Positions 1 to 11,868 of a stretch of 11,868 nt of DNA are shown piece after piece. The position numbers and the translations under genes were made by a program. Source of the DNA: a virus (lineage: Duplodnaviria; Heunggongvirae; Uroviricota; Caudoviricetes); the IMG/VR virus record IMGVR_UViG_2711768053_000004, positions 1 to 11,868 of that record; one strand, 5' to 3'. A model generated the notes under the pieces. The model was given only the letters and a program-made list of their open reading frames with translations. It was not told the DNA's origin and ran no database searches. Numbering within the stretch: position 1 is the stretch's first letter; each line of letters opens with the position of its first letter.

Positions 1-5
1 CAGCT

Positions 6-380
6 TCATTTTTTGACCTGCCCGTCATGCATTATTTCGTAAATTTTCACGCCCAACCGCCCACCGGGAACGACCTGACCGCGCACAATATTGATTTCAT
101 CAAACTGCTCGTCATCGATAAGCAGTCCCGCATGCGTCAGCGCATCCAGGGGTGCTTTCAGAATATTGTCCAGGTCACGACGGCGCTTATCCGGTGGCTC
201 TGCAATAATCTTTATCGCCAGCCTTCCGGACAGATTTAATTTCAGTTGCTGCTGGCGAACAATTAGCGCCACATCACGGCGATAACGCTCACCGGATTTT
301 GATACAAAATATGTGCTGCCACGGCGTCGCCAGTAGGTGTTCACCGTCGGCGGGTAAGGCAAAACAAACTCTATACGCAT
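6..380 (-). CDS. rusA: Holliday junction resolvase RusA (crossover junction endodeoxyribonuclease)
   Basis: 124-aa ORF with ATG start (cat at 378-380). Conserved RusA-like core (PPDKRRRDLDN...DALTHAGLLIDD...GGRLGVKIYEI) recognised from memory of E. coli RusA. Sits at the end of a nin-type block, where lambdoid phages carry rusA just before Q. Confidence 0.88.
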   Translation of the reverse strand: MRIEFVLPYPPTVNTYWRRRGSTYFVSKSGERYRRDVALIVRQQQLKLNLSGRLAIKIIAEPPDKRRRDLDNILKAPLDALTHAGLLIDDEQFDEINIVRGQVVPGGRLGVKIYEIMHDGQVKK

Positions 381-392
381 CAGTAACCTCTT

Positions 393-1442
393 TTACCCGA
401 GCACGCCGGTTGCAAAGGCGTGATCAAGAAAACGAAAAATTAAATCAATCTGAGAACCATATTTTTCTTCAAACGCCAGCGGATCCGCATGAAGCTCGTT
501 GTGATGCTCCCGACACAGCGGTAGCGTGAAAATATCGTGGGATTTTGTTCCTATCCCTCCCTGACCGTGACCAATCAGGTGATGGGGATCGTCGGCTGGC
601 TGACCACAACACGCACACGGCTGTGTCTTTACCCAGCGTGTGTATTTCTCATTTATCCAACGGCGACGTTTAGGTCGCTTCATGAAAGATTCCGGAGACT
701 CCGGATCTACGGCAATGCTGACCACCGTCTTTTCCTGTGGTGCGTTCTGTTGCTGGTGGACGTGAGGCAACGGCGCAAGATTTTTTGTGCGCTGCTTCAG
801 TATGCTGGTGGCGGTCTGCTCTCCCGGTATGATGTCGCTTTCGCGGTACACCGAGCGGATTTTTTCCGCACGTAACCCCAGAGAACGACGCAATACTGTC
901 TCAGGTAATGCGTCCGCCACCTGATTGCAGACCGCCCACCAGGATAATTCAGCCAGCGATAATTCCCGCTCCTGTGTGCCATTCATTGCATGGCGTATGA
1001 CGTCAATCATCCATGCAGACAGGTTTTGGTGAGCAAGTTGCCCGAGTGATTCGGAGGTCTGGTCGCGCAGCTGGTTATCGCAGTGCCAGCACAACACCAT
1101 CGCGCCAGCACCGTAACGATGTATGACGGTTTCGCTGTGATGGTAGTCACCATGAGGCCACTGGCAGGATTTAACATGACGCAGGAGCCAGTCAGACAGT
1201 GCACCAGCGCCGCCGGCAGCACGAATCACCCGCTCATCGCTGAAAAATGGCAGCAGAGATTTATCTTCCGCCAGCGGCTGGCGAGCGGCAGGAACGACCC
1301 CGGACGGCAGCCCGCGCATGCTTTTCGGTTCAGGCTCCACCAGCACACGCCCCTGCATAAACAAAGGCATCGCATCAGGACCGGGCCTGAAAAGTACAAT
1401 CCCCAGACGGTGAGCAATTTCAGGAGTCACTAATACCCGCAC
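393..1442 (-). CDS. DUF968-family phage protein (YdfU-like) with C-terminal Cys/His HNH-like cluster
   Basis: 349-aa ORF. Start codon is GTG (cac at 1440-1442), preceded by GGAGG at 4-5 nt spacing, 1 nt after the stop of the upstream ORF. C-terminus CACCGQPADDPHHLIGHGQGG...CREHHNELH fits DUF968. Same length as Qin YdfU (from memory). Confidence 0.75.
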   Translation of the reverse strand: MRVLVTPEIAHRLGIVLFRPGPDAMPLFMQGRVLVEPEPKSMRGLPSGVVPAARQPLAEDKSLLPFFSDERVIRAAGGAGALSDWLLRHVKSCQWPHGDYHHSETVIHRYGAGAMVLCWHCDNQLRDQTSESLGQLAHQNLSAWMIDVIRHAMNGTQERELSLAELSWWAVCNQVADALPETVLRRSLGLRAEKIRSVYRESDIIPGEQTATSILKQRTKNLAPLPHVHQQQNAPQEKTVVSIAVDPESPESFMKRPKRRRWINEKYTRWVKTQPCACCGQPADDPHHLIGHGQGGIGTKSHDIFTLPLCREHHNELHADPLAFEEKYGSQIDLIFRFLDHAFATGVLG

Positions 1443-1443
1443 G

Positions 1444-1728
1444 TTACCTCCAGATGCGTTGCTGGAATGTGCGGGACGGACGCGGTGGGCGTTCGGAATA
1501 AGGGAGTCTGACGTAGATTATCCAGTGACGATAATCGAGGCTGAGGGCTTTCCTAAACTCATACCCACGTCTGCGGTAGTTATGGATCAGCCATTCGGCC
1601 TGTTCTTCAGTGCAGGGATCGTGCTGATACCAGTCATATTTGAATGCGTGAGAACGCCGCCCGTGCCAGCTGGCAAAGACGGCTGAATTATCAGAATTGT
1701 TAATTTTTTTGTAATGCACCACTACCAT
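1444..1728 (-). CDS. hypothetical phage protein (94 aa, basic, Trp/Tyr/Arg-rich)
   Basis: ORF tightly packed against the downstream DUF968 gene. The ATG at 1728 abuts GAGG with no spacer, so the true start may be the GTG at codon 3 or 4. No family recognised. Confidence 0.45.
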   Translation of the reverse strand: MVVVHYKKINNSDNSAVFASWHGRRSHAFKYDWYQHDPCTEEQAEWLIHNYRRRGYEFRKALSLDYRHWIIYVRLPYSERPPRPSRTFQQRIWR

Positions 1729-1788
1729 CCTCGTAATGGTGCGACAGACGCCAGTTGTTCAGGCTGGCTTTAACTATAGCATTATAAT

Positions 1789-1983
1789 CTAGTCTTTCTT
1801 AATGCTGAAGTGACTGACCGAATCCGCATGCGATTCTTTGGTGATCAGAATAACATCGGGTGGCAATGGCATTACGATAAATTCACCATTCTCAAGAACT
1901 ATTACTTCATAATTACCAGGTACAGAAAGCGCAGCAATTAATTCCTTATCGTTCATAACCAAAATCCCGTGAACTTTAAACAC
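1789..1983 (-). CDS. hypothetical small protein (64 aa; possibly 55 aa from internal ATG at 1956)
   Basis: Short AT-rich ORF with GTG start at 1983 (SD directly adjacent, poor spacing). Could be a spurious frame. Confidence 0.3.
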   Translation of the reverse strand: MFKVHGILVMNDKELIAALSVPGNYEVIVLENGEFIVMPLPPDVILITKESHADSVSHFSIKKD

Positions 1984-2145
1984 CTCCCCTTAAGGGGGCC
2001 ATCCCTCTTCTCCCTGCGCGCTACTTAAGAGCCTCGATTCTAGCCGTGAAGACATACCAATCAACAGCAATAAGCCACCTGAATAACAGAATCAGCCAGC
2101 CACATCAGTACAACTAGATGCATCATGCTCACTGAAAATAAACAA

Positions 2146-2198
2146 CAAAAAACCCGCCGAAGCGCTGAGGGGTCCCCATAAATCAGCGCTAAAGCGGG
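2146..2198 (-). terminator. Rho-independent terminator at the 3' end of the hok transcript
   Basis: On the minus-strand RNA: CCCGC-uuu-AGCGCUGA-[14-nt loop]-UCAGCGCU-ucg-GCGGG followed by UUUUUU. Plus-strand arms at 2153-2157/2194-2198 and 2161-2168/2183-2190, A-run at 2147-2152. Lies about 70 nt downstream of the hok stop. Confidence 0.55.
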
Positions 2199-2267
2199 TT
2201 AAGTGCGGGTGCATTGAGGATACCTGACAACTTAAAGAGTGGCGGGAATTGCTCCCCGCCGTAGCTC

Positions 2268-2420
2268 TTAACGTTTTTCAACTTCGTAGGCTAAATACGC
2301 TGAAAGCTCTGTGTTTCCCTGCCTGATGTGCAGCTCGCATAGCGAACCGCGAACCATCCAGACAAATATCAGAATGGTGATGCAAACCACCACCAGACAA
2401 AACACATAGCTCCTTCGCAT
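2268..2420 (-). CDS. hok: Hok/Gef-family type I toxin (50 aa, single transmembrane helix)
   Basis: Hand translation of the minus strand: MRRSYVFCLVVVCITILIFVWMVRGSLCELHIRQGNTELSAYLAYEVEKR. Carries the Hok signature (hydrophobic N-terminal helix, R-x-SLCE-x-R, AYE near the C-terminus). SD GGGGG lies 5 nt before the ATG. Below the 60-aa cutoff of the supplied ORF track. Confidence 0.8.
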   Translation of the reverse strand: MRRSYVFCLVVVCITILIFVWMVRGSLCELHIRQGNTELSAYLAYEVEKR

Positions 2421-2478
2421 TACAGCCCCCTGTTAGTTGATTTCTTACTGTTAAGAGGCTAATCTTTATGTGTCGCAT
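2278..2478 (-). CDS. mok: Mok-like overlapping reading frame (translational coupler for hok)
   Basis: 66-aa ORF in a different frame that starts 58 nt upstream of hok (ATG at 2476-2478, GAGG about 9 nt upstream) and overlaps nearly all of hok. This is the hok/mok arrangement known from plasmid R1 and chromosomal hok loci. Confidence 0.5.
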   Translation of the reverse strand: MRHIKISLLTVRNQLTGGCNAKELCVLSGGGLHHHSDICLDGSRFAMRAAHQAGKHRAFSVFSLRS

Positions 2479-2540
2479 ACAGAATGCCTCAGATTAATGT
2501 TAAGCGTCTTGCCGGACGCGTAATGTTAACTGGGGCTTTT
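2472..2540 (+). ncRNA. sok: Putative Sok-like antisense RNA (approximate bounds)
   Basis: Inferred from hok/mok architecture. A plus-strand promoter candidate, TTGATT (2437-2442) - 17 bp - TAATCT (2460-2465), would start an antisense transcript across the mok initiation region. A short hairpin GCGTC-ttgccg-GACGC sits at about 2503-2519. The -10 is weak and the 3' end is undefined. Confidence 0.3.
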
Positions 2541-2711
2541 CTCTATCTGCCGTTGGTGTTCATGCCCGAGGCAGATAGCCTCAAGCACCCGCAGCAATTC
2601 TACTTAACTCTCCTTTTCCCGCAAACCGTTTTTATCCCCAGCGGCAAATCGAATACACCACCAGCGCCACCGCCATCGCAATTCCTACCGTTGTGAATGC
2701 TTCAGGCCAGG

Positions 2712-3056
2712 TCATCGTAAAATATCCTCCGCGCTTATCAGTCCGTTCCGCTCCAGATAACTCATCGCCTTATCCGGTAATTTGCAGTCTGGCTTCGCTT
2801 TCCTCAGTTGCCAGGTTAACTGCTTTACCAGCATGGTTAACTCATCGACCAGACGCTGATATCCCACTGGTTTGTATTCATGCAATTTACCGGCTGGCTC
2901 TGCTGCCAGCGATACCAGTGCGATTTCCAGAACAGCAATATCCATCTTATATGTGCGGATGATGTCATGGTCGATTGTGCCCGGTATGCACAGTCTCTGT
3001 GCTTCAATAGTCTCCTCTGCGTGAGCTATTAACTGCTCTCTGGTAAAAGTCGTCAT
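2712..3056 (-). CDS. hypothetical phage protein (114 aa)
   Basis: ATG at 3054-3056 overlaps the TGA of the upstream HNH gene (ATGA overlap), indicating translational coupling. No family recognised. Confidence 0.6.
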
Positions 3057-3418
3057 GCCGTAGCCCCTTCTTGATATTTTTCAAACCAGAACACAACCGG
3101 ATCAGATTTCATTTCAACCAATCCCATACGAACCAGCGCTTTGCCTTTTCCGGACGCAAGGAATTCACGACGACCATCACTGATAATTCGCCGATAATCT
3201 TCCAGGCTACTGCAATGCTTGTGCAGGTTGCATGGGTGGCATGCCGGAACCATGTTGGATATATCGTCACGCTCCTGGTGAAGCATATTTCCAGCAAAAC
3301 GAATGACCGGTTTTACATGGTCTGCATGCCACTTTTCGCCAAGTTCGCAGCCGCAATAAGCACAGCGACCGCCGAACTTCATGCGCAGCTCTGCACGTTG
3401 TTTTTTCGTCAGTGCCAT
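3053..3418 (-). CDS. HNH endonuclease (121 aa)
   Basis: Motifs CAYCGC...WHADHVKP...N...CHPCNLHKH (CxxC / HxDH / N / H / CxxC). The ORF track starts at 3508, but the internal ATG at 3416-3418 has a good SD (AAGGAAA) and sits 2 nt after the stop of the upstream small ORF, so it is the preferred start. Confidence 0.75.
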
Positions 3419-3419
3419 A

Positions 3420-3638
3420 TCAGCTTTCCTTATACGGATTAATTTTATTGTGCAGTGTGTTGAACGACGCCCACACCACGTCGTTATACAATTCAATAAC
3501 TGGCTCAATTATTTTCCCGATTGTCCAGACAAAAATTAGCGGGGATGTCGGTATCATCAACACGATAAACAGAATGAGAAACAGAAATTCTGTTGTTCTA
3601 CTCTTTCGCGGATATTTTTTTCTAAATAATGTGACCAT
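3420..3638 (-). CDS. small predicted membrane protein (72 aa, one hydrophobic helix)
   Basis: ATG start at 3636-3638. Hydrophobic segment FLFLILFIVLMIPTSPLIFVWTIG. Ends 2 nt before the HNH start. Preceded by the GC hairpin at 3644-3659. Confidence 0.45.
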   Translation of the reverse strand: MVTLFRKKYPRKSRTTEFLFLILFIVLMIPTSPLIFVWTIGKIIEPVIELYNDVVWASFNTLHNKINPYKES

Positions 3639-3732
3639 TCATTACCGCCCTTTCGGGCGGCCTCCTGATGATTTGAGGGTGAAGGAATCCCTCCGGTTAA
3701 GGATTAAATTTTATTTACAACACTAAATTTAA

Positions 3733-4257
3733 TTATTCAGGCGCGCGAATCTGTTCCGCACAATGCAATAATGCTTCTGTCACTTCCTTAAGCGTTACGG
3801 TATCGGCATCATCCAGTCCTGCAACTTTTGCGTGCCTGACAAACGCCGCGCGAAGCTCGTTAAACGCCACCGCCCGTACATCAGCCAGGAAAGCATCTGT
3901 AGCCTGGGTTTGCGGCATACCTCCGTCTGTTGCGCAGATATACGCATCAGATATTTCATCCTGCTCGCCATTAAACACATAGCAACTCTGTACGATAAAT
4001 TTATTCAGCCGCGCATTCTCCGCCGCCAGCGTCATGCGTTCTTTCTCAAGTCGGAAAATTTCTGTCACGTATTTGGCGTTTTCACCCCCCTTGATTAACT
4101 CGTTAATTCGTTTGCTTTTAATTTCCAGTTCATCCAGCAGTTCCAGCACAACCTGAGGTGTGGCTTTCATACGAAATGCCAGCAATTTTTGTGGTGTGGC
4201 TGCTATTTTTATTGCTTCTGCCGCCCCACGCAGTGCCTGATAGTCAATCTTGCTCAC
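3733..4257 (-). CDS. hypothetical phage protein (174 aa), possibly Ead/Ea22-like
   Basis: GTG start at 4257 with strong SD (AAGGAG, 7-nt spacing). Central coiled-coil-like region. The family name is a weak guess from the N-terminal motif MSKIDYQALRGAAEA. Confidence 0.6.
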   Translation of the reverse strand: MSKIDYQALRGAAEAIKIAATPQKLLAFRMKATPQVVLELLDELEIKSKRINELIKGGENAKYVTEIFRLEKERMTLAAENARLNKFIVQSCYVFNGEQDEISDAYICATDGGMPQTQATDAFLADVRAVAFNELRAAFVRHAKVAGLDDADTVTLKEVTEALLHCAEQIRAPE

Positions 4258-4510
4258 TGGTTGTCTCCTTTTTCCATGTTTTCAGACTTTCACCACAGAA
4301 CGGGCAAAATGAGACTCGAATAGGTGATTTAGAAAATTCACCGGAACGCAACATCACCAAATCAGGGGCGCGAGTTAAATTCTCATTCCAGATTTTGTAT
4401 ATCAGCAGACCTTTTCGCATCGTGTATTCAGCATCATGCTCAAGGGACTTTGCCAGTGCTGCACATGGTTCTATCTTGTTGCCCTTAACCTGGCATTTTG
4501 ATTCACTCAC
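4244..4510 (-). CDS. small Cys-rich (putative zinc-ribbon) protein, 88 aa
   Basis: GTG start at 4508-4510 overlaps the TGA of the upstream gene (GTGA), with AGGAGG 7 nt upstream. Cys pairs C-x9-C near the N-terminus and CPFC near the C-terminus. Confidence 0.5.
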   Translation of the reverse strand: MSESKCQVKGNKIEPCAALAKSLEHDAEYTMRKGLLIYKIWNENLTRAPDLVMLRSGEFSKSPIRVSFCPFCGESLKTWKKETTSEQD

Positions 4511-4902
4511 CGCACCACCTCCTGAAAATTACCCTGATAAAACGCCAGTACGCGCTGCATAGCTTCGCTCTTCCGGCACTCGCTACAGATTATGTTCTGA
4601 CGCCTGTCGTAGCGGCGTATTTCTCCGTCTGGTAACTTTCGAATCAGTGTCAGGTCGGTTCTTTTCTCCGGTGTCTTACGCCATACGCGATACGCCTGCT
4701 CTGATGCAAAAACACCGTATTTACCGGACATGTATAAATCGCCACAAGCCAGCACATCCACAAGGCAGCGTCGAACCGAATGCCAGCCTGCTCCCGTCGC
4801 TCTCTCCAGCTGTGACATCGTCATGCGTCCATTTTTGCGTACCAATCCGATAATTCGTGCCTTCAGCTCTTCCCGCTGTTCGAGAGAAAAAGGTTTCGCC
4901 AT
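4507..4902 (-). CDS. hypothetical phage protein (131 aa)
   Basis: The ORF track starts at GTG 4929, but the in-frame codons AGGAGG-attt-ATG place a canonical SD before the ATG at 4900-4902 (MAKPFSLEQREEL...), which is the preferred start. No family recognised. Confidence 0.6.
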   Translation of the reverse strand: MAKPFSLEQREELKARIIGLVRKNGRMTMSQLERATGAGWHSVRRCLVDVLACGDLYMSGKYGVFASEQAYRVWRKTPEKRTDLTLIRKLPDGEIRRYDRRQNIICSECRKSEAMQRVLAFYQGNFQEVVR

Positions 4903-4932
4903 AAATCCTCCTGAAAAAATCACCTTCACAAT

Positions 4933-5598
4933 TCATACAAAACCAGCCGCTTTCCGGCGTTCATACTCCTGTTTCAGCAACTCAATTGGTGTTGGCCCCG
5001 ACGGGCGTTTTGGTGCTGCCAGTTGCCGCCGTACGGCCGGAACGCTGAAGCCGTCACCAACATGCTTTGCCCATTTCGCCAGTTGCCGTTCTGCAAGTCG
5101 TTTTAACTCACCTTCGGTCATCTGGCGCTCAATCCCCTTTGAACGCATCTCGAGGCAAATGTGATACAGCACAGGCTGAGACCACGGGTATTTATCGCTT
5201 CCGTCGTATCGCCAGGACTCGTTGCGCCAGCGGCGGTACTCCTCCATCACAGCATCCACCGTCAGACCGAATGGATTGGCCCCGCTTTCCGAAATCAGCG
5301 CCACAAACTCAGCCAGGTCCGGAGGCCATGTTTCACCTGCCCTGCAACGGTCCATGCACTGGCGGCAGACCTGCCGGATTTGCTGCTCAGTCATCGCGCC
5401 AATCTGTGCAATCCAGAGCTTCGAAGGTGCGGCCCCGTTCTTCTGGGTCCAGCGGTTCGAATAAACCTCCCCCATGAGTTCCCACAGCTTCCAGGCAGTT
5501 TCCGTCGTTGATAAATCCGTTTTCACGTTCCCACCGCTCACGTGCTGCCCGAATTTCCTGAACTGCCCGTGATGCGGTGCCACCTGGTGCTGCTGCAT
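4933..5598 (-). CDS. Replication protein P-like (lambda P family helicase loader)
   Basis: 221 aa. ATG at 5596-5598 with SD GGGGG at 6-nt spacing. The pattern ...[10 protein letters not shown]...YPW...[14 protein letters not shown]... parallels lambda P (...PGQFVAW...YPW...LTDAELRRKAADEL...), recalled from memory. Its first 212 nt overlap the 3' end of the O-like ORF. Confidence 0.7.
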
Positions 5599-6427
5599 GG
5601 TTTACCCCCTTGCTGACTGGTTTAGCCTGCGCCCTGACGTGATTTACGTGACGGGCGAATTTCTGCTCCCACTGAACCTGCGTGAAAACTTTACCCTCCG
5701 CTGCCCAGTAGTCCCGGAAGGCGGCAAGTTCAGCTGGTGTAAATTCCGGCTCCGGCAGAGCCACTCCCCACAGAGCCGCCCGTCGTCGAAAATCCGGCGA
5801 CGGATGCCAGCCATCGGTCATCGGAAATTTCCCGATGGGTTCGCTCAGGCCTTCCAGGTAATCAGGTTCCGCTGTTTGCAACGGCACGCCATTTGCCTCA
5901 CTGGTCGGAGCACTCTCGCGCACGCGCGCGTTATGTGTGGGGTTTAATTCTTTATCTGTATCTTTATCTGTCGTGACTCGTCGTGACATGTCGTGACATA
6001 TGCGTGACTCGTCGCGCCCCCCCTCATTCTGTTTTCGTAATTTTTCCCTCTCGCGCTGCGCTCTCTTGCGCTCTGCCGGGGATTTCGCGGTTTGTGAAAC
6101 GTTGCCATTGTCCTCTTTCAGTACCTGGCGTTTTTCCCATCCACTGATCAAATCTCCATCAAGTACCCGCCCCTGCATTGCCTGTAAAATTGAATCAATT
6201 ACTTCTTCCGTCACATCAAGCGCACTTGCTAAATCTTCCGCCGTGACATCAATGTGACCACGTAGTGACACGCCGTGACATGTCGTGACATTTCGTGACG
6301 CACTCACCAGAAGGTGGATATACACAGCCATCACTGTTGCGATTGGCTGTCCTGACACCCTGGAAATTGTTCGCCACTTAGGATCGTTTGGCATGTCATG
6401 CCATAATCTGAGCCAGGCGTTAGCCAT
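5387..6427 (-). CDS. Replication initiator, O-like (YdaU-like), containing the ori iterons
   Basis: Long ORF directly upstream of the P-like gene with two iteron arrays inside the coding sequence. The ORF track start (6433) is GTG; the ATG at 6425-6427 has a better SD. The 3' boundary is uncertain because of the long overlap with the P-like gene. Confidence 0.65.
5972..6008. repeat. Iteron array 1: 4 x CGTGAC at about 10-bp periodicity
   Basis: CGTGAC at 5972, 5982, 5992 and 6003, flanked at 5950-5970 by an AT-rich direct repeat (TTTATCTGT x2). Confidence 0.6.
6243..6299. repeat. Iteron array 2: 6 x GTGAC at 10-11-bp periodicity
   Basis: GTGAC at 6243, 6254, 6265, 6275, 6285 and 6295, all in the same orientation, inside the N-terminal coding part of the O-like gene. 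Confidence 0.6.
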
Positions 6428-6498
6428 ACTCACCTCTTCTGATACCGAATCTTTTTACTCACGAATTGCCGGAAGCGATCCGGTATGAATATTGTCAG

Positions 6499-6924
6499 TC
6501 AATGCACAACCACAATATTTCCCGCCGGGCCACCACGATTCATCTGGTTGAAACCAGCGATCGCCACTGCGACAAAATCATCAGCGTCTCTCACCAGTCG
6601 TTCCCGCGTCTCCACCAGTTCCCGAAAATAGGCTGAACTGTGGCTGCGCATTCGGGCCACCAGCAGAGGTGGCATTGCTTTTTCGATCGCTGGTAACAAC
6701 GCCTGAATTTTTTTAACCGCATCAGGGGTGTCTTTATCCAGCCAACGGAAAATTTTCTGGGTATTACGAGCCAGCGCTTCCGGATGCCTGTCGTCATATA
6801 GCTCCGGGAACGTCATACCCAGCTCAAAATAAGCCCGGGTTATTTCAGCTGCCGGAACTTTTTCACCGTCCGGATGCGCCCAGGCATTCATCGCCATACG
6901 GATGTGTTCATGCTTGATTTTCAT
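6499..6924 (-). CDS. YdaT-like protein (cII-position gene of Rac-type immunity regions)
   Basis: 141 aa, ATG start. Begins MKIKHEHI and ends VVH, as I recall for Rac YdaT (140 aa). Its start overlaps the end of the Cro-like gene by 17 nt. Confidence 0.7.
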   Translation of the reverse strand: MKIKHEHIRMAMNAWAHPDGEKVPAAEITRAYFELGMTFPELYDDRHPEALARNTQKIFRWLDKDTPDAVKKIQALLPAIEKAMPPLLVARMRSHSSAYFRELVETRERLVRDADDFVAVAIAGFNQMNRGGPAGNIVVVH

Positions 6925-7192
6925 GAATCAACCCTATTTTTTTGGATCTGATAACTTCTTCTGGAATCCCACTAACTGGAGTAGGGTGCAAATCAGGCCG
7001 GAGATCATGCGGAGTAACAATCCATTCCCCAAGCTCACAAAGCCTAATAACCCTCTCACTAGGAACCCTGTTCCTGATAATCCAATTAAAAATGGATTGA
7101 GGCGATTTGAAACCAAACATGCGACTTACAGCAGAGGGAGAACCAATAGCCATAACTGCCTTTTCTGTAATGTTTTTGTATGTAGTGCTCAT
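6908..7192 (-). CDS. Cro-like HTH regulator (YdaS family)
   Basis: Resembles the YdaS/Cro HTH region (..SIFNWIIRNRVPSERVIRLCELGEWIVTPHDLRPDL..). Divergent from the repressor gene. Preferred start is the ATG at 7190-7192 (GGAG, 6-nt spacing); the ORF-track ATG at 7204 has no SD. Confidence 0.75.
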   Translation of the reverse strand: MSTTYKNITEKAVMAIGSPSAVSRMFGFKSPQSIFNWIIRNRVPSERVIRLCELGEWIVTPHDLRPDLHPTPVSGIPEEVIRSKKIGLIHENQA

Positions 7193-7219
7193 CGTTAGCT
7201 CCATTTCAAGAACGAGAGA

Positions 7220-7307
7220 ATAATACTACATAAAGTAGAATTTGCAACTACACAAAATAGAAATGACGAATCAAGGCAACTGCTTTAATCTTCTACATAT
7301 GGTAGAA
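7220..7307. promoter_or_regulatory. Immunity-region divergent promoter/operator segment
   Basis: Minus-strand PR-like promoter: -35 TTGCAA (7242-7247), 16-bp spacer, -10 TATTAT (revcomp of 7220-7225). Operator-like palindromes CTAC-N5-GTAG at 7226-7238 (inside that spacer) and TTCTAC-atatg-GTAGAA at 7291-7307 (centred on the repressor ATG candidate at 7299). Confidence 0.5.
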
Positions 7308-7751
7308 AACGTACATAAACATCACGCATTCGCAACAAGACTTAAGTCAGAAATGGATAGAAAAAACAAATCCATCAAAGACTTAAGCTTATCTACGGGC
7401 GTCACATACGAAATGGCGCGACGCTACACCCTAGGTACAGCTAAACCCCGCGACGAAAAACTCGAACGAATAGCAGAATTTCTGGGAGTTGAACCTGCAT
7501 GGCTGGAATACGGTCAGCCAACAGAGAAAGGAATTGAACCAGCAGAAGATTCATTTGTAACACAAAGATCTGGTGCCAATAGCAATGGCGAATTTACTGA
7601 GTTAAGTGAAGATGAAAAGCGGCTGATACGAACGTTTCGGGAGTTTCCGCCAGTTGAAGCCAGGAATATGCTTCTGGCTTTTGAGATGAGACTCAAGAAA
7701 CTTTACGATTTCTACGAGAAATACGCCAGCACCCCACCACCTTCTGAGTGA
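7299..7751 (+). CDS. Prophage repressor, DicA/RacR-like (XRE-family HTH)
   Basis: N-terminal HTH (ATRLKSEMDRKNKSIKDLSLSTGVTYEMARRYTLGTAKPRDEKLERIAEFLGVEPAWLEYG) plus a C-terminal helical domain. Divergent from the Cro-like gene and followed by a strong terminator. Start is ambiguous: TTG 7242 (ORF track), ATG 7263 or ATG 7299. None has an SD, so the mRNA may be leaderless. Confidence 0.75.
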   Translation: MVENVHKHHAFATRLKSEMDRKNKSIKDLSLSTGVTYEMARRYTLGTAKPRDEKLERIAEFLGVEPAWLEYGQPTEKGIEPAEDSFVTQRSGANSNGEFTELSEDEKRLIRTFREFPPVEARNMLLAFEMRLKKLYDFYEKYASTPPPSE

Positions 7752-7767
7752 CTTTATCTGTTAACAC

Positions 7768-7792
7768 CCCCCGGCATTGCCGGGTTTTTTTT
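7768..7792 (+). terminator. Rho-independent terminator after the repressor gene
   Basis: CCCGGC-att-GCCGGG (7770-7784) followed by eight T (7785-7792), 18 nt after the repressor stop. Confidence 0.8.
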
Positions 7793-7846
7793 GCCTTAAA
7801 AAACAACTTTATGTAGACAAAAACACAACAAACTCTACTTTTAGTG

Positions 7847-7874
7847 TTGACACATCTACTTCAAGTAGTATCAT
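7847..7874 (+). promoter_or_regulatory. pL-like early promoter with embedded operator
   Basis: -35 TTGACA (7847-7852), 16-bp spacer, -10 TATCAT (7869-7874). The spacer contains the perfect palindrome CTACTT-c-AAGTAG (7856-7868), which matches the CTAC-N5-GTAG sites in the cro/repressor intergenic region. Confidence 0.55.
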
Positions 7875-7947
7875 TAAGTCATCAAAGCACAACGGTGCGA
7901 CAGGTCTTAGTTCCGCTACCCCGGCGTTAAGGGGAAATGAGGTCAAC

Positions 7948-8103
7948 ATGGATACTATCGATCTTGGCAACAACGAATCTCTGGTATACGGCGTGTTCCC
8001 AAACCAGGACGGTACGTTCACCGCGATGACGTATACCAAAAGCAAAACGTTTAAAACCGAATCTGGCGCGCGTCGCTGGCTGGAAAGAAATTCAGGTGAG
8101 TGA
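7948..8103 (+). CDS. small early protein, 51 aa (YdfA-like by size and position)
   Basis: The ORF track gives 7777..8103, but that N-terminal extension crosses the terminator and promoter. The internal ATG at 7948 has GAGG at 5-nt spacing. The 51-aa size and first position in the operon match Qin ydfA (from memory). Confidence 0.6.
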   Translation: MDTIDLGNNESLVYGVFPNQDGTFTAMTYTKSKTFKTESGARRWLERNSGE

Positions 8104-8104
8104 T

Positions 8105-8233
8105 ATGGATTTCGACGCAATCATGGAAAAGGCTTACGAAGAATACTTCGAAGGCCTTGCCGAAGGCGAAGAAGCTCTCAGCTTCAGTGAGTTTAAACAG
8201 GCGCTTTCCAGCTCGGCAAAATCTAACGGCTGA
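8105..8233 (+). CDS. small acidic protein, 42 aa (YdfB-like by size and position)
   Basis: Hand-translated: MDFDAIMEKAYEEYFEGLAEGEEALSFSEFKQALSSSAKSNG. ATG at 8105, 1 nt after the previous stop, with SD AGGTGAG. Below the ORF-track cutoff. Confidence 0.5.
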   Translation: MDFDAIMEKAYEEYFEGLAEGEEALSFSEFKQALSSSAKSNG

Positions 8234-8263
8234 TAAGCGAAGCGGCACCGCGAGGAATTCAGT

Positions 8264-8674
8264 ATGCAGAAACGAGAACCCGTCATCATCGCGCCAGACT
8301 ATACCGATGATGAAATTTACGAATGGATGTGCGGGAAGATACGCGCCATTAATGACATGAAGCAGGCTGCTGACTACAAAGAGCGCCTCTCTAAAGAACT
8401 GGCATCAGCGGAGCAAGATATTACCACTCTGGCAAAAAGAGCGGCATTAAACGTTTCGCGAGTGATTGCAAACTACCGACCGATGAGGTTGACGATGAAT
8501 GAAACAGAACTTAAACACGTTATTGCCTTGCTTCTGGAAGATGCAAAACGCTTACATGAACTGGAACCCAATGCAGGCACAGAGGCCCGCATTTGGTTAG
8601 CAAAAAAATGCCTGGATAGTAAAAGTTTTCAGAAAGAAATAACAATCAGTTTTGAGAATTCGCCTCATCTATGA
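8264..8674 (+). CDS. hypothetical early protein (136 aa)
   Basis: ATG at 8264 with GAGGA at about 9-nt spacing. No family recognised. Confidence 0.6.
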   Translation: MQKREPVIIAPDYTDDEIYEWMCGKIRAINDMKQAADYKERLSKELASAEQDITTLAKRAALNVSRVIANYRPMRLTMNETELKHVIALLLEDAKRLHELEPNAGTEARIWLAKKCLDSKSFQKEITISFENSPHL

Positions 8675-8876
8675 ATTGTTGAATCAGGTTTGCTAATTCA
8701 GTGGCATGTTTATCACCTGTGCTTTTTAAAGCATCTGTTACACAATCTGAGCGAAGTTCTGGCGGAAGTCTTGTTGCCATCAAAGCTATCGCGAGCTTAA
8801 TGGCTCTTAATTCGGCATTTATTCCATCATGGGATAAATCATTATTAATAGTGGTTTTTATTGTGTTCAAAATCAC
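8646..8876 (-). CDS. hypothetical small protein (74-76 aa), convergent to the plus-strand operon
   Basis: AT-rich ORF. On the minus strand AGGAGG is followed by GTG with no spacer and by TTG at 6-nt spacing, so a TTG start at 8868-8870 is plausible. Its 3' end overlaps the 136-aa gene by 29 nt. Could be spurious. Confidence 0.3.
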   Translation of the reverse strand: MILNTIKTTINNDLSHDGINAELRAIKLAIALMATRLPPELRSDCVTDALKSTGDKHATELANLIQQFIDEANSQN

Positions 8877-9189
8877 CCTCCTGAGGGTTGTTAATTAAGG
8901 AGTTCTCCACGGGTGAGGCGGAGTGCGTGCGCCGGACACGGGTGAGCATCCGGCACTGGCAGTTTACTGAAAGGATATATCCCTGAAAAGTCAGGGCATA
9001 ACACGGAAGCGCACAGCGAAGTCATTCCTCCCTTTGTTGTGTACCACTGACATCTTCGTCTGTGCGCTTCCGGTTGTGGCACTCCGCGAAATGGCGCGGC
9101 GGTAAGTATGGCGGGGTTATCCTTACCCCATTAGTGGCACCGGGTTGTCAGGTTGACCATACGCCTGAGTGACAACCCCGCTACAACAA

Positions 9190-9256
9190 CCCATGGTGGT
9201 TACCTTTTGGCGGGTATCCGTTTTTTTTGTTTTCCCTTGTGATACCCGCCCTTTTT
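9190..9256 (+). ncRNA. dicF: DicF-like small RNA (approximate 5' end) with intrinsic terminator
   Basis: Sequence UGGUGGUUACCUUUUGGCGGGUAUC...GAUACCCGCCCUUUUU resembles E. coli DicF (UGGUGACGUUUGGCGGUAUC...CCGCCC, from memory). Terminator stem GGCGGGTATC (9209-9218) / GATACCCGCC (9241-9250) followed by a T-run (9252-9256). Lies immediately upstream of dicB, as in the Qin dicB operon. Confidence 0.55.
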
Positions 9257-9439
9257 AAAGTGAATTTTGTGATGCGGTGAATGCGGCTCAGCGCACGCGG
9301 AACAGTTAAAAAGGCCAGTTGACTTCCGTATTGGTTCTTATGGGTGGGTTCTCTGTATCCGGCGTTAATTGTTAACTGGTTAACGTCACCTGGAGGCACC
9401 AGGCACCGTATCACAAAATTCATTGTTGAGGACGCGATA

Positions 9440-9628
9440 ATGGAAACGTTATTACCAAACGTTAATACGTCTGAAGGTTGTTTTGAAATTGGTGTCAAAA
9501 TCAGTAACCCTGCATTTACTGAAGATGCCATTAATAAGAGAAAACACGAACGGGAGTTATTAAATAAAATATGCATTGTTTCAATGCTGGCCCGTTTACG
9601 TCTGATGCAAAAAGGATACTGGCAATGA
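9440..9628 (+). CDS. dicB: Cell division inhibitor DicB (62 aa)
   Basis: Translation METLLPNVNTSEGCFEIGVKISNPAFTEDAINKRKHERELLNKICIVSMLARLRLMQKGYWQ is near-identical to my recollection of E. coli K-12 DicB. ATG at 9440 with GAGGA about 8 nt upstream. The 5' extension in the ORF track (9344) is not supported. Confidence 0.8.
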   Translation: METLLPNVNTSEGCFEIGVKISNPAFTEDAINKRKHERELLNKICIVSMLARLRLMQKGYWQ

Positions 9629-9828
9629 ATACTGCTATTGCCCTCACTCTGACTGTTTTTCTTAATACTGGCGAGCCTGTTGACATGGTTATTGACATTT
9701 ACGGTTCAATGAAAGAATGCATGGCTGCCGCAGCAGAACAAAAAATTCCCGGTAACTGCTATCCGGTCGATAAAGTTATTCACATGGACAATAACGAAAT
9801 CCCGGCAGGACTTAAAACAGCACCGTAA
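9625..9828 (+). CDS. YdfD-like small protein (67 aa, hydrophobic N-terminus; putative lysis/toxic protein)
   Basis: ATG at 9625-9627 overlaps the dicB TGA (ATGA), with AAGGA at 7-nt spacing. Sequence begins MNTAIALTLTVFLNTGEPVD. Position after dicB matches Qin ydfD. Confidence 0.6.
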   Translation: MNTAIALTLTVFLNTGEPVDMVIDIYGSMKECMAAAAEQKIPGNCYPVDKVIHMDNNEIPAGLKTAP

Positions 9829-9908
9829 TTAATATCCGGTTTCATTTTTATATGCCAGCAATGGCAGGGATTTGTTCACCCTTAAATCTGTAATGAGGTT
9901 AAAACAAA

Positions 9909-11868
9909 ATGAGTAAAGTCTTTATTTGCGCCGCCATTCCGGACGAACAGGCAATAAAGGAAGAAGGTGCAGTCGCTGTAGCCACTGCCATTGAAGCCGG
10001 CGACGAACGCCGCGCCCGTGCCAAATTTACCTGGCAATTCCTGGAGCAATATCCGGCTGCTCAGGACTGCGCTTATAAATTTCTTGTCTGCGAGGATAAA
10101 CCCGGCATGCCCCGCCCTGCCATCGACTCCTGGGATACCGAATATATGCTGGAAAACCGCTGGGATGAGGAAGGCGCTTCCTTTGTTCCGGTCGAACCAG
10201 AATCCGATCCGATGAACGTCAATTTTGACAAGCTGTCCCTTGAAGTACAGAACGCGGTCCTGGTTAAGTTCGGTACATGTGAAAACATCACCGTTGATAT
10301 GGTGATTAGTGCACAGGAATTGTTGCAGGAGGACATGGCAACATTCGACGGGCATATCGTTGAGGCATTGATGAAAATGCCTGAAGTTAACGTCATGTAT
10401 TCAGAACTAAAGCTGCTCGCCATCGGGTGGGTTAAACATAAATGTAAGCCGGGTGCAAAATGGCCTGAGATCCAGACAGAATTACGCACCTGGAAAAAAC
10501 GTCGCGAAGCCGAACGCAAAGAAACCGGGAAATACACGTCTGTTGTTGATCTTGCCCGCGCCAGAGTCAACCGGCAGCACACTGAAAACTCAACAGGAAA
10601 AATCCCCCCTGTCACTGCCGCCATTCGTCGCGAATACAAGCAGACATGGAAAACACTGGATGAAGAACTGGCCTACGCTTTCTGGCCTGGTGATATTGAT
10701 GCCGGAAACATTGACGGCAGCATCCATCGCTGGGCAAAAAATGAAGTTATCGACAAAGATCGCGAAGACTGGAAGCGTATTTCCGCATCAATGCGCAAAC
10801 AACCTGATGCCGTTCGCTACGACCGTCAGACTATTTTTGGCCTTGTCCGTGAGCGTCCGATCGACATTCACAAAGATCCCGTGGCGCTGAACAAATACAT
10901 CACTGAATACCTGGCGACAAAGGGCGTGTTTGAGGATGAAGAAACAGACCAGAACACTGCTGATATTCTCCAGCCGTCAGCAGCACAAACTGATGCAGTG
11001 GAAACTGAAGTATCTGATACCAAAAAAAATGAAAGCGCGCTGGAAACTGAACCATCTGTAGAGCGTGAGGGGCCGTTCTACTTCCTCTTCACCGATAAGG
11101 ATGGCGAAAAATATGGTCGTGCAAACAAACTTTCTGGTCTGAATAAGGCGCTGGCTGCAGGGGCTACTGAAATCACGAAAGAAGAATATTTTGCCCGTAA
11201 AAACGGCACGTACTCAGGTTCACAACAAAATACTGGTGCCTCTGACACGACCGCACAACCAGAGCCGGTAAAAGTTACCGCTGACGAAGTAAACAAAATT
11301 ATGCAGGCAGCCAATATCAGCCAGCCTGACGCCGATAAGTTGCTTGCTGCCTCTCGCGGAGAATTTGTTGCAGGGATTAGCGACCCGAATGATCCGAAAT
11401 GGGTGAAGGGGATTGAAACCCGCGATTCTGTGTACCAGAACCAGCAAGAAACGGAACAGAACGACCAGAAAGCGGAACAAAACAGCCAAAATGCGTTACA
11501 AAACGAGCCAGAAACGAAACAACCTGAGCCAGTAGCGCAACAGGAACCGGAAAAAGTCTGCACCGCCTGCGGTCAGAGCGGTGGCGGCAACTGCCCTGAT
11601 TGTGGCGCGGTGATGGGCGACGCAACATACCAGGAAACATTCGATGAAGAGAATCAGGTTGAAGTTCAGGAAAATGATCCGAAGGAAATGGAAGGCGCTG
11701 AACATCCACACAAGGAGAATGCTGGCAGCGCTCAGGACCACGCCAGCGATAATGAAACTGGCGAGACGGCAGATCCCTTAATTGCGGTGAACGGTCATCA
11801 CGTTATCACATCCACCAGCAGAGTGTGGTACCACCTGATGATCGACATTGAAACAATGGGAACCAACA
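9909..11868 (+). CDS. recE: Exodeoxyribonuclease VIII, RecE-like (N-terminal ~653 codons; ORF continues past window end)
   Basis: Hand translation shows no stop from ATG 9909 to the window end. Residues DKLLAASRGEFVAGISDPNDPKWVKGIETRD...CTACGQSGGGNCPDCGAVMGDATYQETFDEE...EGAEHPHKENAGS closely match the linker/zinc-ribbon segment of E. coli RecE as I recall it. The C-terminal nuclease domain would lie beyond the window. Confidence 0.85.
   Translation, partial: MSKVFICAAIPDEQAIKEEGAVAVATAIEAGDERRARAKFTWQFLEQYPAAQDCAYKFLVCEDKPGMPRPAIDSWDTEYMLENRWDEEGASFVPVEPESDPMNVNFDKLSLEVQNAVLVKFGTCENITVDMVISAQELLQEDMATFDGHIVEALMKMPEVNVMYSELKLLAIGWVKHKCKPGAKWPEIQTELRTWKKRREAERKETGKYTSVVDLARARVNRQHTENSTGKIPPVTAAIRREYKQTWKTLDEELAYAFWPGDIDAGNIDGSIHRWAKNEVIDKDREDWKRISASMRKQPDAVRYDRQTIFGLVRERPIDIHKDPVALNKYITEYLATKGVFEDEETDQNTADILQPSAAQTDAVETEVSDTKKNESALETEPSVEREGPFYFLFTDKDGEKYGRANKLSGLNKALAAGATEITKEEYFARKNGTYSGSQQNTGASDTTAQPEPVKVTADEVNKIMQAANISQPDADKLLAASRGEFVAGISDPNDPKWVKGIETRDSVYQNQQETEQNDQKAEQNSQNALQNEPETKQPEPVAQQEPEKVCTACGQSGGGNCPDCGAVMGDATYQETFDEENQVEVQENDPKEMEGAEHPHKENAGSAQDHASDNETGETADPLIAVNGHHVITSTSRVWYHLMIDIETMGTN

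Follow-up and report, generated by a model that had tools for sequence, protein, structure and literature searches.

The immunity region of the DNA analysed here (IMG/VR virus record IMGVR_UViG_2711768053_000004, positions 1 to 11,868; 'the window' below means all 11,868 bases), an Escherichia coli lambdoid prophage of the Qin/Rac kind, carries three palindromes of the form CTAC-N5-GTAG that are very probably the strongest three of the six operators of a lambdoid immunity switch. A first-pass annotation of this DNA had listed the three as sites A, B and C, and a pattern search found all of them where it had placed them and no other exact match in the window, against 0.08 matches expected; none of 200 dinucleotide-preserving shuffles gave three. 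As a count of operators the list was incomplete, as a search allowing one mismatch, together with comparison with relatives, gives six sites in two triplets (OR and OL, about 630 bp apart):

7224..7240 (core 7226-7238): OR1, site A of the first list, TACTACataaaGTAGAA, core CTACATAAAGTAG; exact match, fills the PR spacer
7246..7262 (core 7248-7260): OR2, AACTACacaaaATAGAA, core CTACacaaaATAG; one-mismatch match, absent from the first list
7291..7307 (core 7293-7305): OR3, site B of the first list, TTCTACatatgGTAGAA, core CTACATATGGTAG; exact match
7854..7870 (core 7856-7868): OL1, site C of the first list, ATCTACttcaaGTAGTA, core CTACTTCAAGTAG, also given as CTACTTcAAGTAG; exact match, fills the PL spacer
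7833..7849 (core 7835-7847): OL2, CTCTACttttaGTGTTG, core CTACttttaGTGT; found by comparison with relatives
7802..7818 (core 7804-7816): OL3, AACAACtttatGTAGAC, core CAACtttatGTAG; one-mismatch match

The centre-to-centre distances are 22 bp for OR1-OR2, 45 bp for OR2-OR3, 31 bp for OL3-OL2 and 21 bp for OL2-OL1, and the operator consensus of about 17 bp reads t-CTAC-TTnAA-GTAG-a. A putative operator sequence for a helix-turn-helix (HTH) dimer is CTACTTAAAGTAG. A repeat finder placed OL2 and OL1 in one direct-repeat family (D11). When the whole window was scanned with a weight matrix built only from other loci, its six best matches were these six sites.

The sites take up set positions within three promoters, two of which were found by a consensus scan and the third by phylogenetic footprinting:

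7220..7247, minus strand: PR-like promoter for cro/ydaS, -35 box TTGCAA (7247-7242), 16-bp spacer, -10 box TATTAT (7225-7220); 9/12 in the consensus scan
7847..7874, plus strand: PL-like promoter, TTGACA-16-TATCAT; 11/12 in the consensus scan
7263..7291, plus strand: PRM-like promoter for the repressor, -35 box ATGACG (7263-7268), 17-bp spacer, -10 box TAATCT (7286-7291); phylogenetic footprint

Sites A and C had been placed in the spacers of PR and PL by the first-pass annotation, and each does lie wholly within the 16-bp gap of its promoter (TTGCAA-16-TATTAT and TTGACA-16-TATCAT respectively). Read on its own strand PR is CTATTTTGTGTAG-TTGCAA-att-CTACTTTATGTAG-TATTAT and PL is CTACTTTTAGTG-TTGACA-cat-CTACTTCAAGTAG-TATCAT, that is, both have one common layout of O2, -35 box, 3 nt, O1 and -10 box, and a 30-nt inverted repeat (I1, repeat finder) joins the two. 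OR1 and OL1 each adjoin a -10 box, OR2 lies between the -35 boxes of PR and PRM and adjoins both, and the right half of OL2 overlaps the PL -35 box. The predicted starts are near 7213 for PR and near 7881 for PL. The PRM footprint was obtained from 36 distinct OR regions aligned on O3; in these (A/T)TG(A/G)(C/T)n is kept two bases after O2, the 17-nt spacer is free to vary, and TAAnCT is kept with its final T being the first T of the TTCTAC of O3. From this footprint the PRM transcript is predicted to start at 7298/7299, which is the A of the repressor ATG or the base before it. O3 would then lie at about -8 to +9 and span the start point, with O2 centred near -45 beside the -35 box. Site B had been described as centred on a candidate start codon, and the ATG at 7299-7301 is indeed in the spacer of OR3 and in frame with the open reading frame of an HTH_3 repressor.

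Strong evidence that these are operators comes from related prophages, where the first-pass annotation had proposed that the motif be looked for; it is clearly conserved there alongside this repressor type. Related loci were retrieved by two recognition-helix peptide patterns, TYEMARRY and GTAKPR, and formed a genome set (40 loci from a one-genome-per-species scan plus the locus of phage Aaphi23, giving 41 loci and 235 kb) and a viral set (80 of the 366 contigs encoding a relative; 420 kb with 55 distinct OR sequences). There were 86 exact CTAC-N5-GTAG sites in the genome set against about 3 expected and 206 in the viral set against 6.4 expected, and all 206 of the latter are at -74..-72, -6 or +506..+799 relative to the repressor start, which are the O1, O3 and OL positions. 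The spacing within OR is fixed (O1-O2 21-24 bp; O2-O3 44-45 bp, 40/42 loci) and the layout is kept in Citrobacter, Buttiauxella, Pantoea, Serratia, Haemophilus, Aggregatibacter, Acinetobacter and several betaproteobacteria, irrespective of whether the repressor has a DicA-like C-terminal half or ends in an S24 peptidase; the S24 domain PF00717 is carried by relatives that share both HTH and operators with the window. An exact or one-mismatch site is present at the O1 position in 39 of the 42 OR regions scored (the window and its close relatives included), and among the 80 viral contigs O1 is exact in 79 and O3 in 68. O2 is found in relatives 21-24 bp from O1 with a right half that is always ATAG. 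On the other side the OL1 arrangement TTGAC-n4-CTACTTnnnGTAG-TATnnT is present in 73 distinct PL regions. In 62 of these OL2 lies 21 bp upstream of OL1 and the form CTACTTTTnGTG followed directly by TTGAC is kept; in 37 of the 73 OL3 lies 31 bp upstream of OL2, and in many relatives it is OL3 that is the exact site of the triplet. Two E. coli relatives with 82% identity have altered spacers in OR1 and OR2 and invariant half-sites. Across the related loci, too, the half-sites are constant while both the spacers and the flanking bases differ.

These counts also bear on the possibility that the matches are due to chance or are a by-product of AT-rich promoter sequence. The region is AT-rich and promoter hexamers do adjoin the half-sites (e.g. 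GTAG followed at once by TAT), but beside the excess within the window itself there are 292 exact sites in the 121 related loci of both sets, against about 10 expected, all at homologous positions, and heteroimmune prophages with equally good promoters carry different palindromes. The E. coli prophage PapRG-04-4 (L045) lacks CTAC-N5-GTAG, and the corresponding promoter positions are taken by TGTTCAC...GAACA palindromes; only the C-terminal domain of its repressor is shared (57% identity), the HTH being another one, and the Cro proteins are 36% identical. In a phage where an S24-type repressor fills this slot the palindromes are ATCTAA...TTAGAT. As different palindromes stand in the same places in these heteroimmune prophages, the palindromes co-vary with the DNA-binding proteins, and we regard the probability of a chance origin as negligible.

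It might also be argued that only sites A and C are true operators and that site B is conserved as code for the N-terminal Met-Val-Glu of the repressor. In loci from enterobacteria and betaproteobacteria the site has the ATG in its spacer and its right half GTAGAA does provide codons 2-3, yet the left half TTCTAC, which is upstream of the ATG, is equally conserved. Moreover, in Haemophilus, Aggregatibacter and Acinetobacter the whole of site B is upstream of the repressor coding region (in Haemophilus it precedes a GGAG-type ribosome-binding site and the ATG) and is still TTCTAC-N5-GTAGAA, 44-45 bp from O2, which means that conservation of O3 is not due to coding. In Pantoea-type loci (L014, L018 and L019, an uncultured-bacterium metagenome-assembled genome among them) both halves of O3 are changed symmetrically, to CCAC...GTGG, as expected for a site that is read by a dimer and may have been tuned to lower affinity. 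A coding explanation for site B is for these reasons very improbable. In L010 (Mixta) the right half of O3 alone is changed (CTAC...GTGG).

A variant of the layout was seen in the Haemophilus, Aggregatibacter, Acinetobacter and Aaphi23 loci (L011-L012, L016, L020-L025, L028-L030, L032-L035, L037-L038, L040-L041 and L044), where the operator spacing is kept and the cro start is only about 13-17 bp away from O1. These loci seem to have a shifted PR, such that O2 would fill the spacer and O1 would cover the transcript start. Their repressors are of the S24-cleavable type, and the Haemophilus gene has an ordinary ribosome-binding site.

The protein that we propose as the reader of the six sites is encoded by the gene whose putative start codon lies in the OR3 spacer:

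7299..7751, plus strand: immunity repressor, 150 aa (162 aa if started at ATG 7263)

Its only Pfam matches are HTH_3 (residues 15-69) and HTH_26, with no S24 peptidase domain among them. In an AlphaFold model residues 3-69 form a five-helix HTH domain, 72-94 are a disordered linker and 104-143 a helical hairpin, the C-terminal 47 residues being modelled as a hairpin of the DicA type. In a Foldseek search against the PDB the N-terminal domain matched 434 Cro, SinR and C.AhdI, with about 62 residues superposed at 1.1-1.9 A; the generic 434/SinR/C-protein fold was all that this search recognised, the C-terminal hairpin having no match, and a PDB search by repressor sequence yielded nothing beyond marginal HTH matches (434 Cro, E = 0.44). 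With no S24 domain, derepression could not occur by RecA-stimulated self-cleavage and induction could not be as in lambda. The stretch VTYEMARRYT(L/M)GTAKPR is invariant in 24 full-length homologues of 48-97% identity that were found by a whole-protein search. Two repeats lie within the gene and may be due to chance: an 18-nt inverted repeat (7341-7358 / 7370-7387, 78% complementary, 11 nt apart) and a perfect 10-nt direct repeat, AAGACTTAAG, at 7337 and 7378.

The divergent cro gene encodes a second DNA-binding protein, and it could be that the palindromes are read mainly or only by this YdaS-type Cro while the repressor reads some other feature such as direct repeats or flanks. In 39 of 45 sequences (the window and 44 loci; the other six have either no Cro open reading frame or no sites) the first gene on the minus strand encodes a homologous Cro, and as it accompanies the sites this regularly the comparison does not by itself separate Cro from repressor. 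For the CP-933P prophage the authors could not assign exact sequences to PaaR2 as against YdaS, having found both inverted and pseudo-symmetric repeats (PMC8630535). On the other hand, two Cro subtypes with different putative recognition helices (FGFKSxQSVxNW and FNLTPWAVSKW) occur beside an identical operator core, and the helix of the repressor is constant among the homologues from the whole-protein search. With the promoter hexamers set aside, OR shows no further conserved block that is repeated, and it is the repressor that binds the palindromes in lambda, Rac and CP-933P. We therefore give the Cro-only explanation a slim chance and retain the repressor as the main reader of the sites.

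Several results weigh against the six-operator reading or against parts of it. In the weight-matrix scan OR2, OL2 and OL3 score 4.7-9.9, compared with a 95% shuffle maximum of 12.3, and individually are non-significant; these three are supported because their position is conserved and not because of their own score, and the scan, whose matrix allows no variation in its core columns, is too strict for degenerate sites. PRM was too weak to be detected in the consensus scan. The two closest divergent relatives (82% identity) have one or two mismatches in OR3 and OL1, from which it follows that some sites drift. Of 43 genome loci with a similar helix, three have neither an exact site nor the layout (a double-HTH protein, a truncated remnant and one divergent S24 protein) and a fourth, L036, has only an exact O1. 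Because retrieval made use of the helix patterns, the helix is invariant in the loci so retrieved partly because they were selected by it; what can soundly be said is that these operators are common to the loci with this helix and are not shared by loci in which the helix is another. Finally, there is a second in-frame ATG at 7263, from which NCBI PGAP annotates a longer protein of 162 aa, and the 12 codons between it and ATG 7299 are free of stops in 17/17 loci of this type, for which we estimate a chance of roughly 0.02-0.03.

The last point concerns the leaderless transcript that the first-pass annotation had suggested as possible for the repressor. For this suggestion, the footprinted PRM predicts a start at the ATG or one base before it, the -10 box TAATCT ends 7-8 nt upstream of ATG 7299, and no Shine-Dalgarno sequence was seen ahead of that ATG on reading the sequence. 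The upstream ATG at 7263 remains as an alternative, and the leaderless reading is insecure because the 12 upstream codons are open and PGAP calls the longer protein. As only about six of the 12 codons are free of fixed promoter sequence, however, the open frame is weak evidence; the peptide encoded between the two ATGs is very variable among the 17 loci, and ATG 7263 itself lies inside the proposed -35 box of PRM. Frames 1 and 2 were considered as controls for the open upstream frame and rejected, as fixed promoter elements place stops there. A longer isoform of the repressor starting at ATG 7263 is possible.

The first-pass annotation had proposed a lambda-like model in which one repressor controls both early promoters and possibly its own transcript, and this model fits the conserved geometry and is supported by the comparison. 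From that geometry we infer the following course of binding and order of site filling. Repressor dimers would bind OR1 and OL1 and, as these sites take up the 16-bp spacers of PR and PL, keep RNA polymerase out. Binding would then extend, probably cooperatively, to the weaker OR2 and OL2, which are 21-22 bp away (two helical turns) and beside the -35 boxes. Repressor at OR2, just upstream of the weak PRM -35 box, could activate its own gene by analogy with lambda; the PRM transcript would be leaderless. Expression of the repressor gene would be switched off once OR3 was occupied, either by repressor in excess or by the YdaS-type Cro. An operator for the CII-like YdaT protein at the cro/ydaT junction would complete the circuit.

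The neighbouring genes are arranged as would be expected for such a switch:

7192..6908, minus strand: Cro analogue (YdaS family), 94 aa, with GGAG 6 nt upstream of the ATG at 7192
6924..6499, minus strand: YdaT family protein, CII analogue, Pfam YdaT_toxin PF06254 42.2 bits (cut-off 21)
6914..6931: YdaT operator TTGATTttcatgAATCAA, the sole zero-mismatch TTGATT-N6-AATCAA in the window, over the ydaT start codon at the cro/ydaT junction
7770..7792, plus strand: intrinsic terminator after the repressor gene, a stem of six G-C pairs (7770-7784) then eight T
6933..7879: exchangeable immunity cassette with cro, OR, repressor, terminator and OL/PL, between mosaic borders

The start codons of repressor and cro (7299 and 7192) are divergent with 106 bp between them, and the YdaT/CII-like gene follows cro. 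The Cro analogue is a borderline match to Pfam YdaS_toxin PF15943 (30.8 bits against a cut-off of 30) and belongs to phrog_35; the YdaT-family gene matches phrog_163, a CII-like activator, with E = 3.9e-46. The YdaT operator probably marks a PRE-like promoter region reading toward the repressor. Further minus-strand genes are a DnaT-domain replication gene, a lambda-P-like gene, DUF977, Ead/Ea22, HNH, DUF968 and RusA, and on the plus strand past PL there is a DUF1391 (ydfA-like) gene followed by dicB and ydfD. The latter two (Pfam DicB, 129 bits, and DUF1482) are at 9344-9828, in the downstream part of the PL operon; nowhere in the window did a DicF RNA score as high as the Rfam gathering threshold. 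On the minus strand at 2418-2590 there is a match to the Rfam sok antisense RNA (93.7 bits against a gathering score of 59), which indicates a hok/sok-type toxin-antitoxin locus among the early-right prophage genes.

The borders of the cassette are defined by PapRG-04-4, which is base-identical to the window up to 6932 and from 7880 and unrelated between these points. The YdaT operator ends one base before the left border, the right border at 7880 is about at the PL start, and BLAST matches to phages and to E. coli break at about the same places. The terminator is kept in the 82%-identical relatives. The PL leader (7880-7938) is identical between the heteroimmune prophages up to the start of DUF1391 and holds CCCCGGCGTTAAGGGG just before the ribosome-binding site. 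In a search for a nut-like structure the leader sequence from 7881 to 7945 folded no better than shuffles (z = 0.51); as folding is at the shuffled level, such a structure there is unsupported. The immunity region of the window is present in only 9 of 5,426 complete E. coli genomes.

As an immunity family it is widespread, with the 366 viral contigs and many genera. Only nine deposited phage genomes have this HTH, including Aaphi23, Providencia, Moraxella and Acinetobacter phages and E. coli Phi06_2987, with no classical model phage among them. The result is a testable operator map of six sites, three promoters and cassette borders, which should help in predicting which prophages are homoimmune, and the family allows a single DNA-binding module to be compared in its natural combinations with cleavable and with non-cleavable C-terminal domains. 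We also put forward, tentatively and while judging it unlikely in full, that HTH, Cro partner and six operators form an old portable cassette of gamma- and betaproteobacterial temperate phages that has been joined to either an S24 or a DicA-like domain, that the non-cleavable cryptic copies confer SOS-proof immunity and that the upstream extension of the repressor gives a second isoform. If this were so, the non-cleavable copies would exclude, or keep uninducible, incoming or co-resident phages that have the cleavable version and the same operators, and the second isoform would be made only from PRE-type read-through transcripts.

The switch can be compared with five known systems. With lambda, whose cI mRNA is leaderless (as summarised in PMC8630535), it shares the gene order, the two operator triplets, the strongest sites over PR and PL, the middle site beside the PRM -35 box and a third site that would control PRM. 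It differs in the 45-bp distance between OR2 and OR3, in having OR3 over the start point and not inside the promoter, in the mere 630 bp between OR and OL, in the lack of an S24 domain and in drawing its Cro and CII from the unrelated YdaS and YdaT families; the half-site also differs in sequence from the lambda operators, as the first-pass annotation had noted. The operators of phage 434 are ACAA-N6-TTGT, and like these the sites described here have 4-bp outer half-sites around a spacer of 5-6 bp that tolerates variation, and are associated with the same N-terminal fold; the half-site, the spacer length and the C-terminal domain are different and the sequence similarity of the proteins is marginal. 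DicA of the Qin prophage occupies the same map position, and the window likewise has dicB, ydfD and a ydfA-like DUF1391 gene. Against the DicA model NF007257, however, the repressor scores 29.1 bits in an alignment of residues 8-135 that runs over the HTH and the C-terminal region, and since the family cut-off is 101 it is not a DicA orthologue.

Footprinting in the Rac prophage of E. coli K-12 has defined three inverted-repeat operators for RacR, of the form (T/A)TAGGC-n3-GCCTA(T/A); the racR ATG lies in the spacer of O3, the strongest promoter of the repressor gives a leaderless transcript and RacR has two HTH domains according to an alignment figure (PMC9638921). As in Rac, the repressor of the window is divergent from ydaS-ydaT, there are three imperfect intergenic inverted repeats with the ATG in the spacer of O3, and the YdaS and YdaT families are represented; unlike RacR, the repressor has one HTH and a DicA-like helical hairpin. 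In the CP-933P prophage of E. coli O157:H7 PaaR2, which has no peptidase motif, forms a bistable switch with YdaS and YdaT, and leaderless paaR2, the promoters PRM, PR and PL and operators OR1-3 and OL1-3 have been described (PMC8630535); the YdaT footprint there is TTGATT-N6-AATCAA at the ydaS/ydaT junction (PMC9986795). The window matches this in having a peptidase-less repressor in the cI position, the same three predicted promoters, two operator triplets and an exact YdaT operator at the equivalent place; it differs in that only a terminator, with no toxin-antitoxin genes, follows the repressor. The RacR consensus is absent from OR and OL, with only two matches elsewhere in the window, each with two mismatches, and the PaaR2 operator consensus, built on GTTTAGTAA, is likewise absent from OR and OL. 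Because neither motif occurs in OR or OL, the immunity specificity is a different one. A search of the searchable literature for CTAC-N5-GTAG and for six representative 13-mers (four from the window and its relatives and two expected variants) gave nothing relevant. The general picture of lambdoid switches is left unchanged and the layout will be no surprise to a specialist; the design is one already known from other E. coli prophages, here combined with a recognised DNA sequence that appears undescribed.

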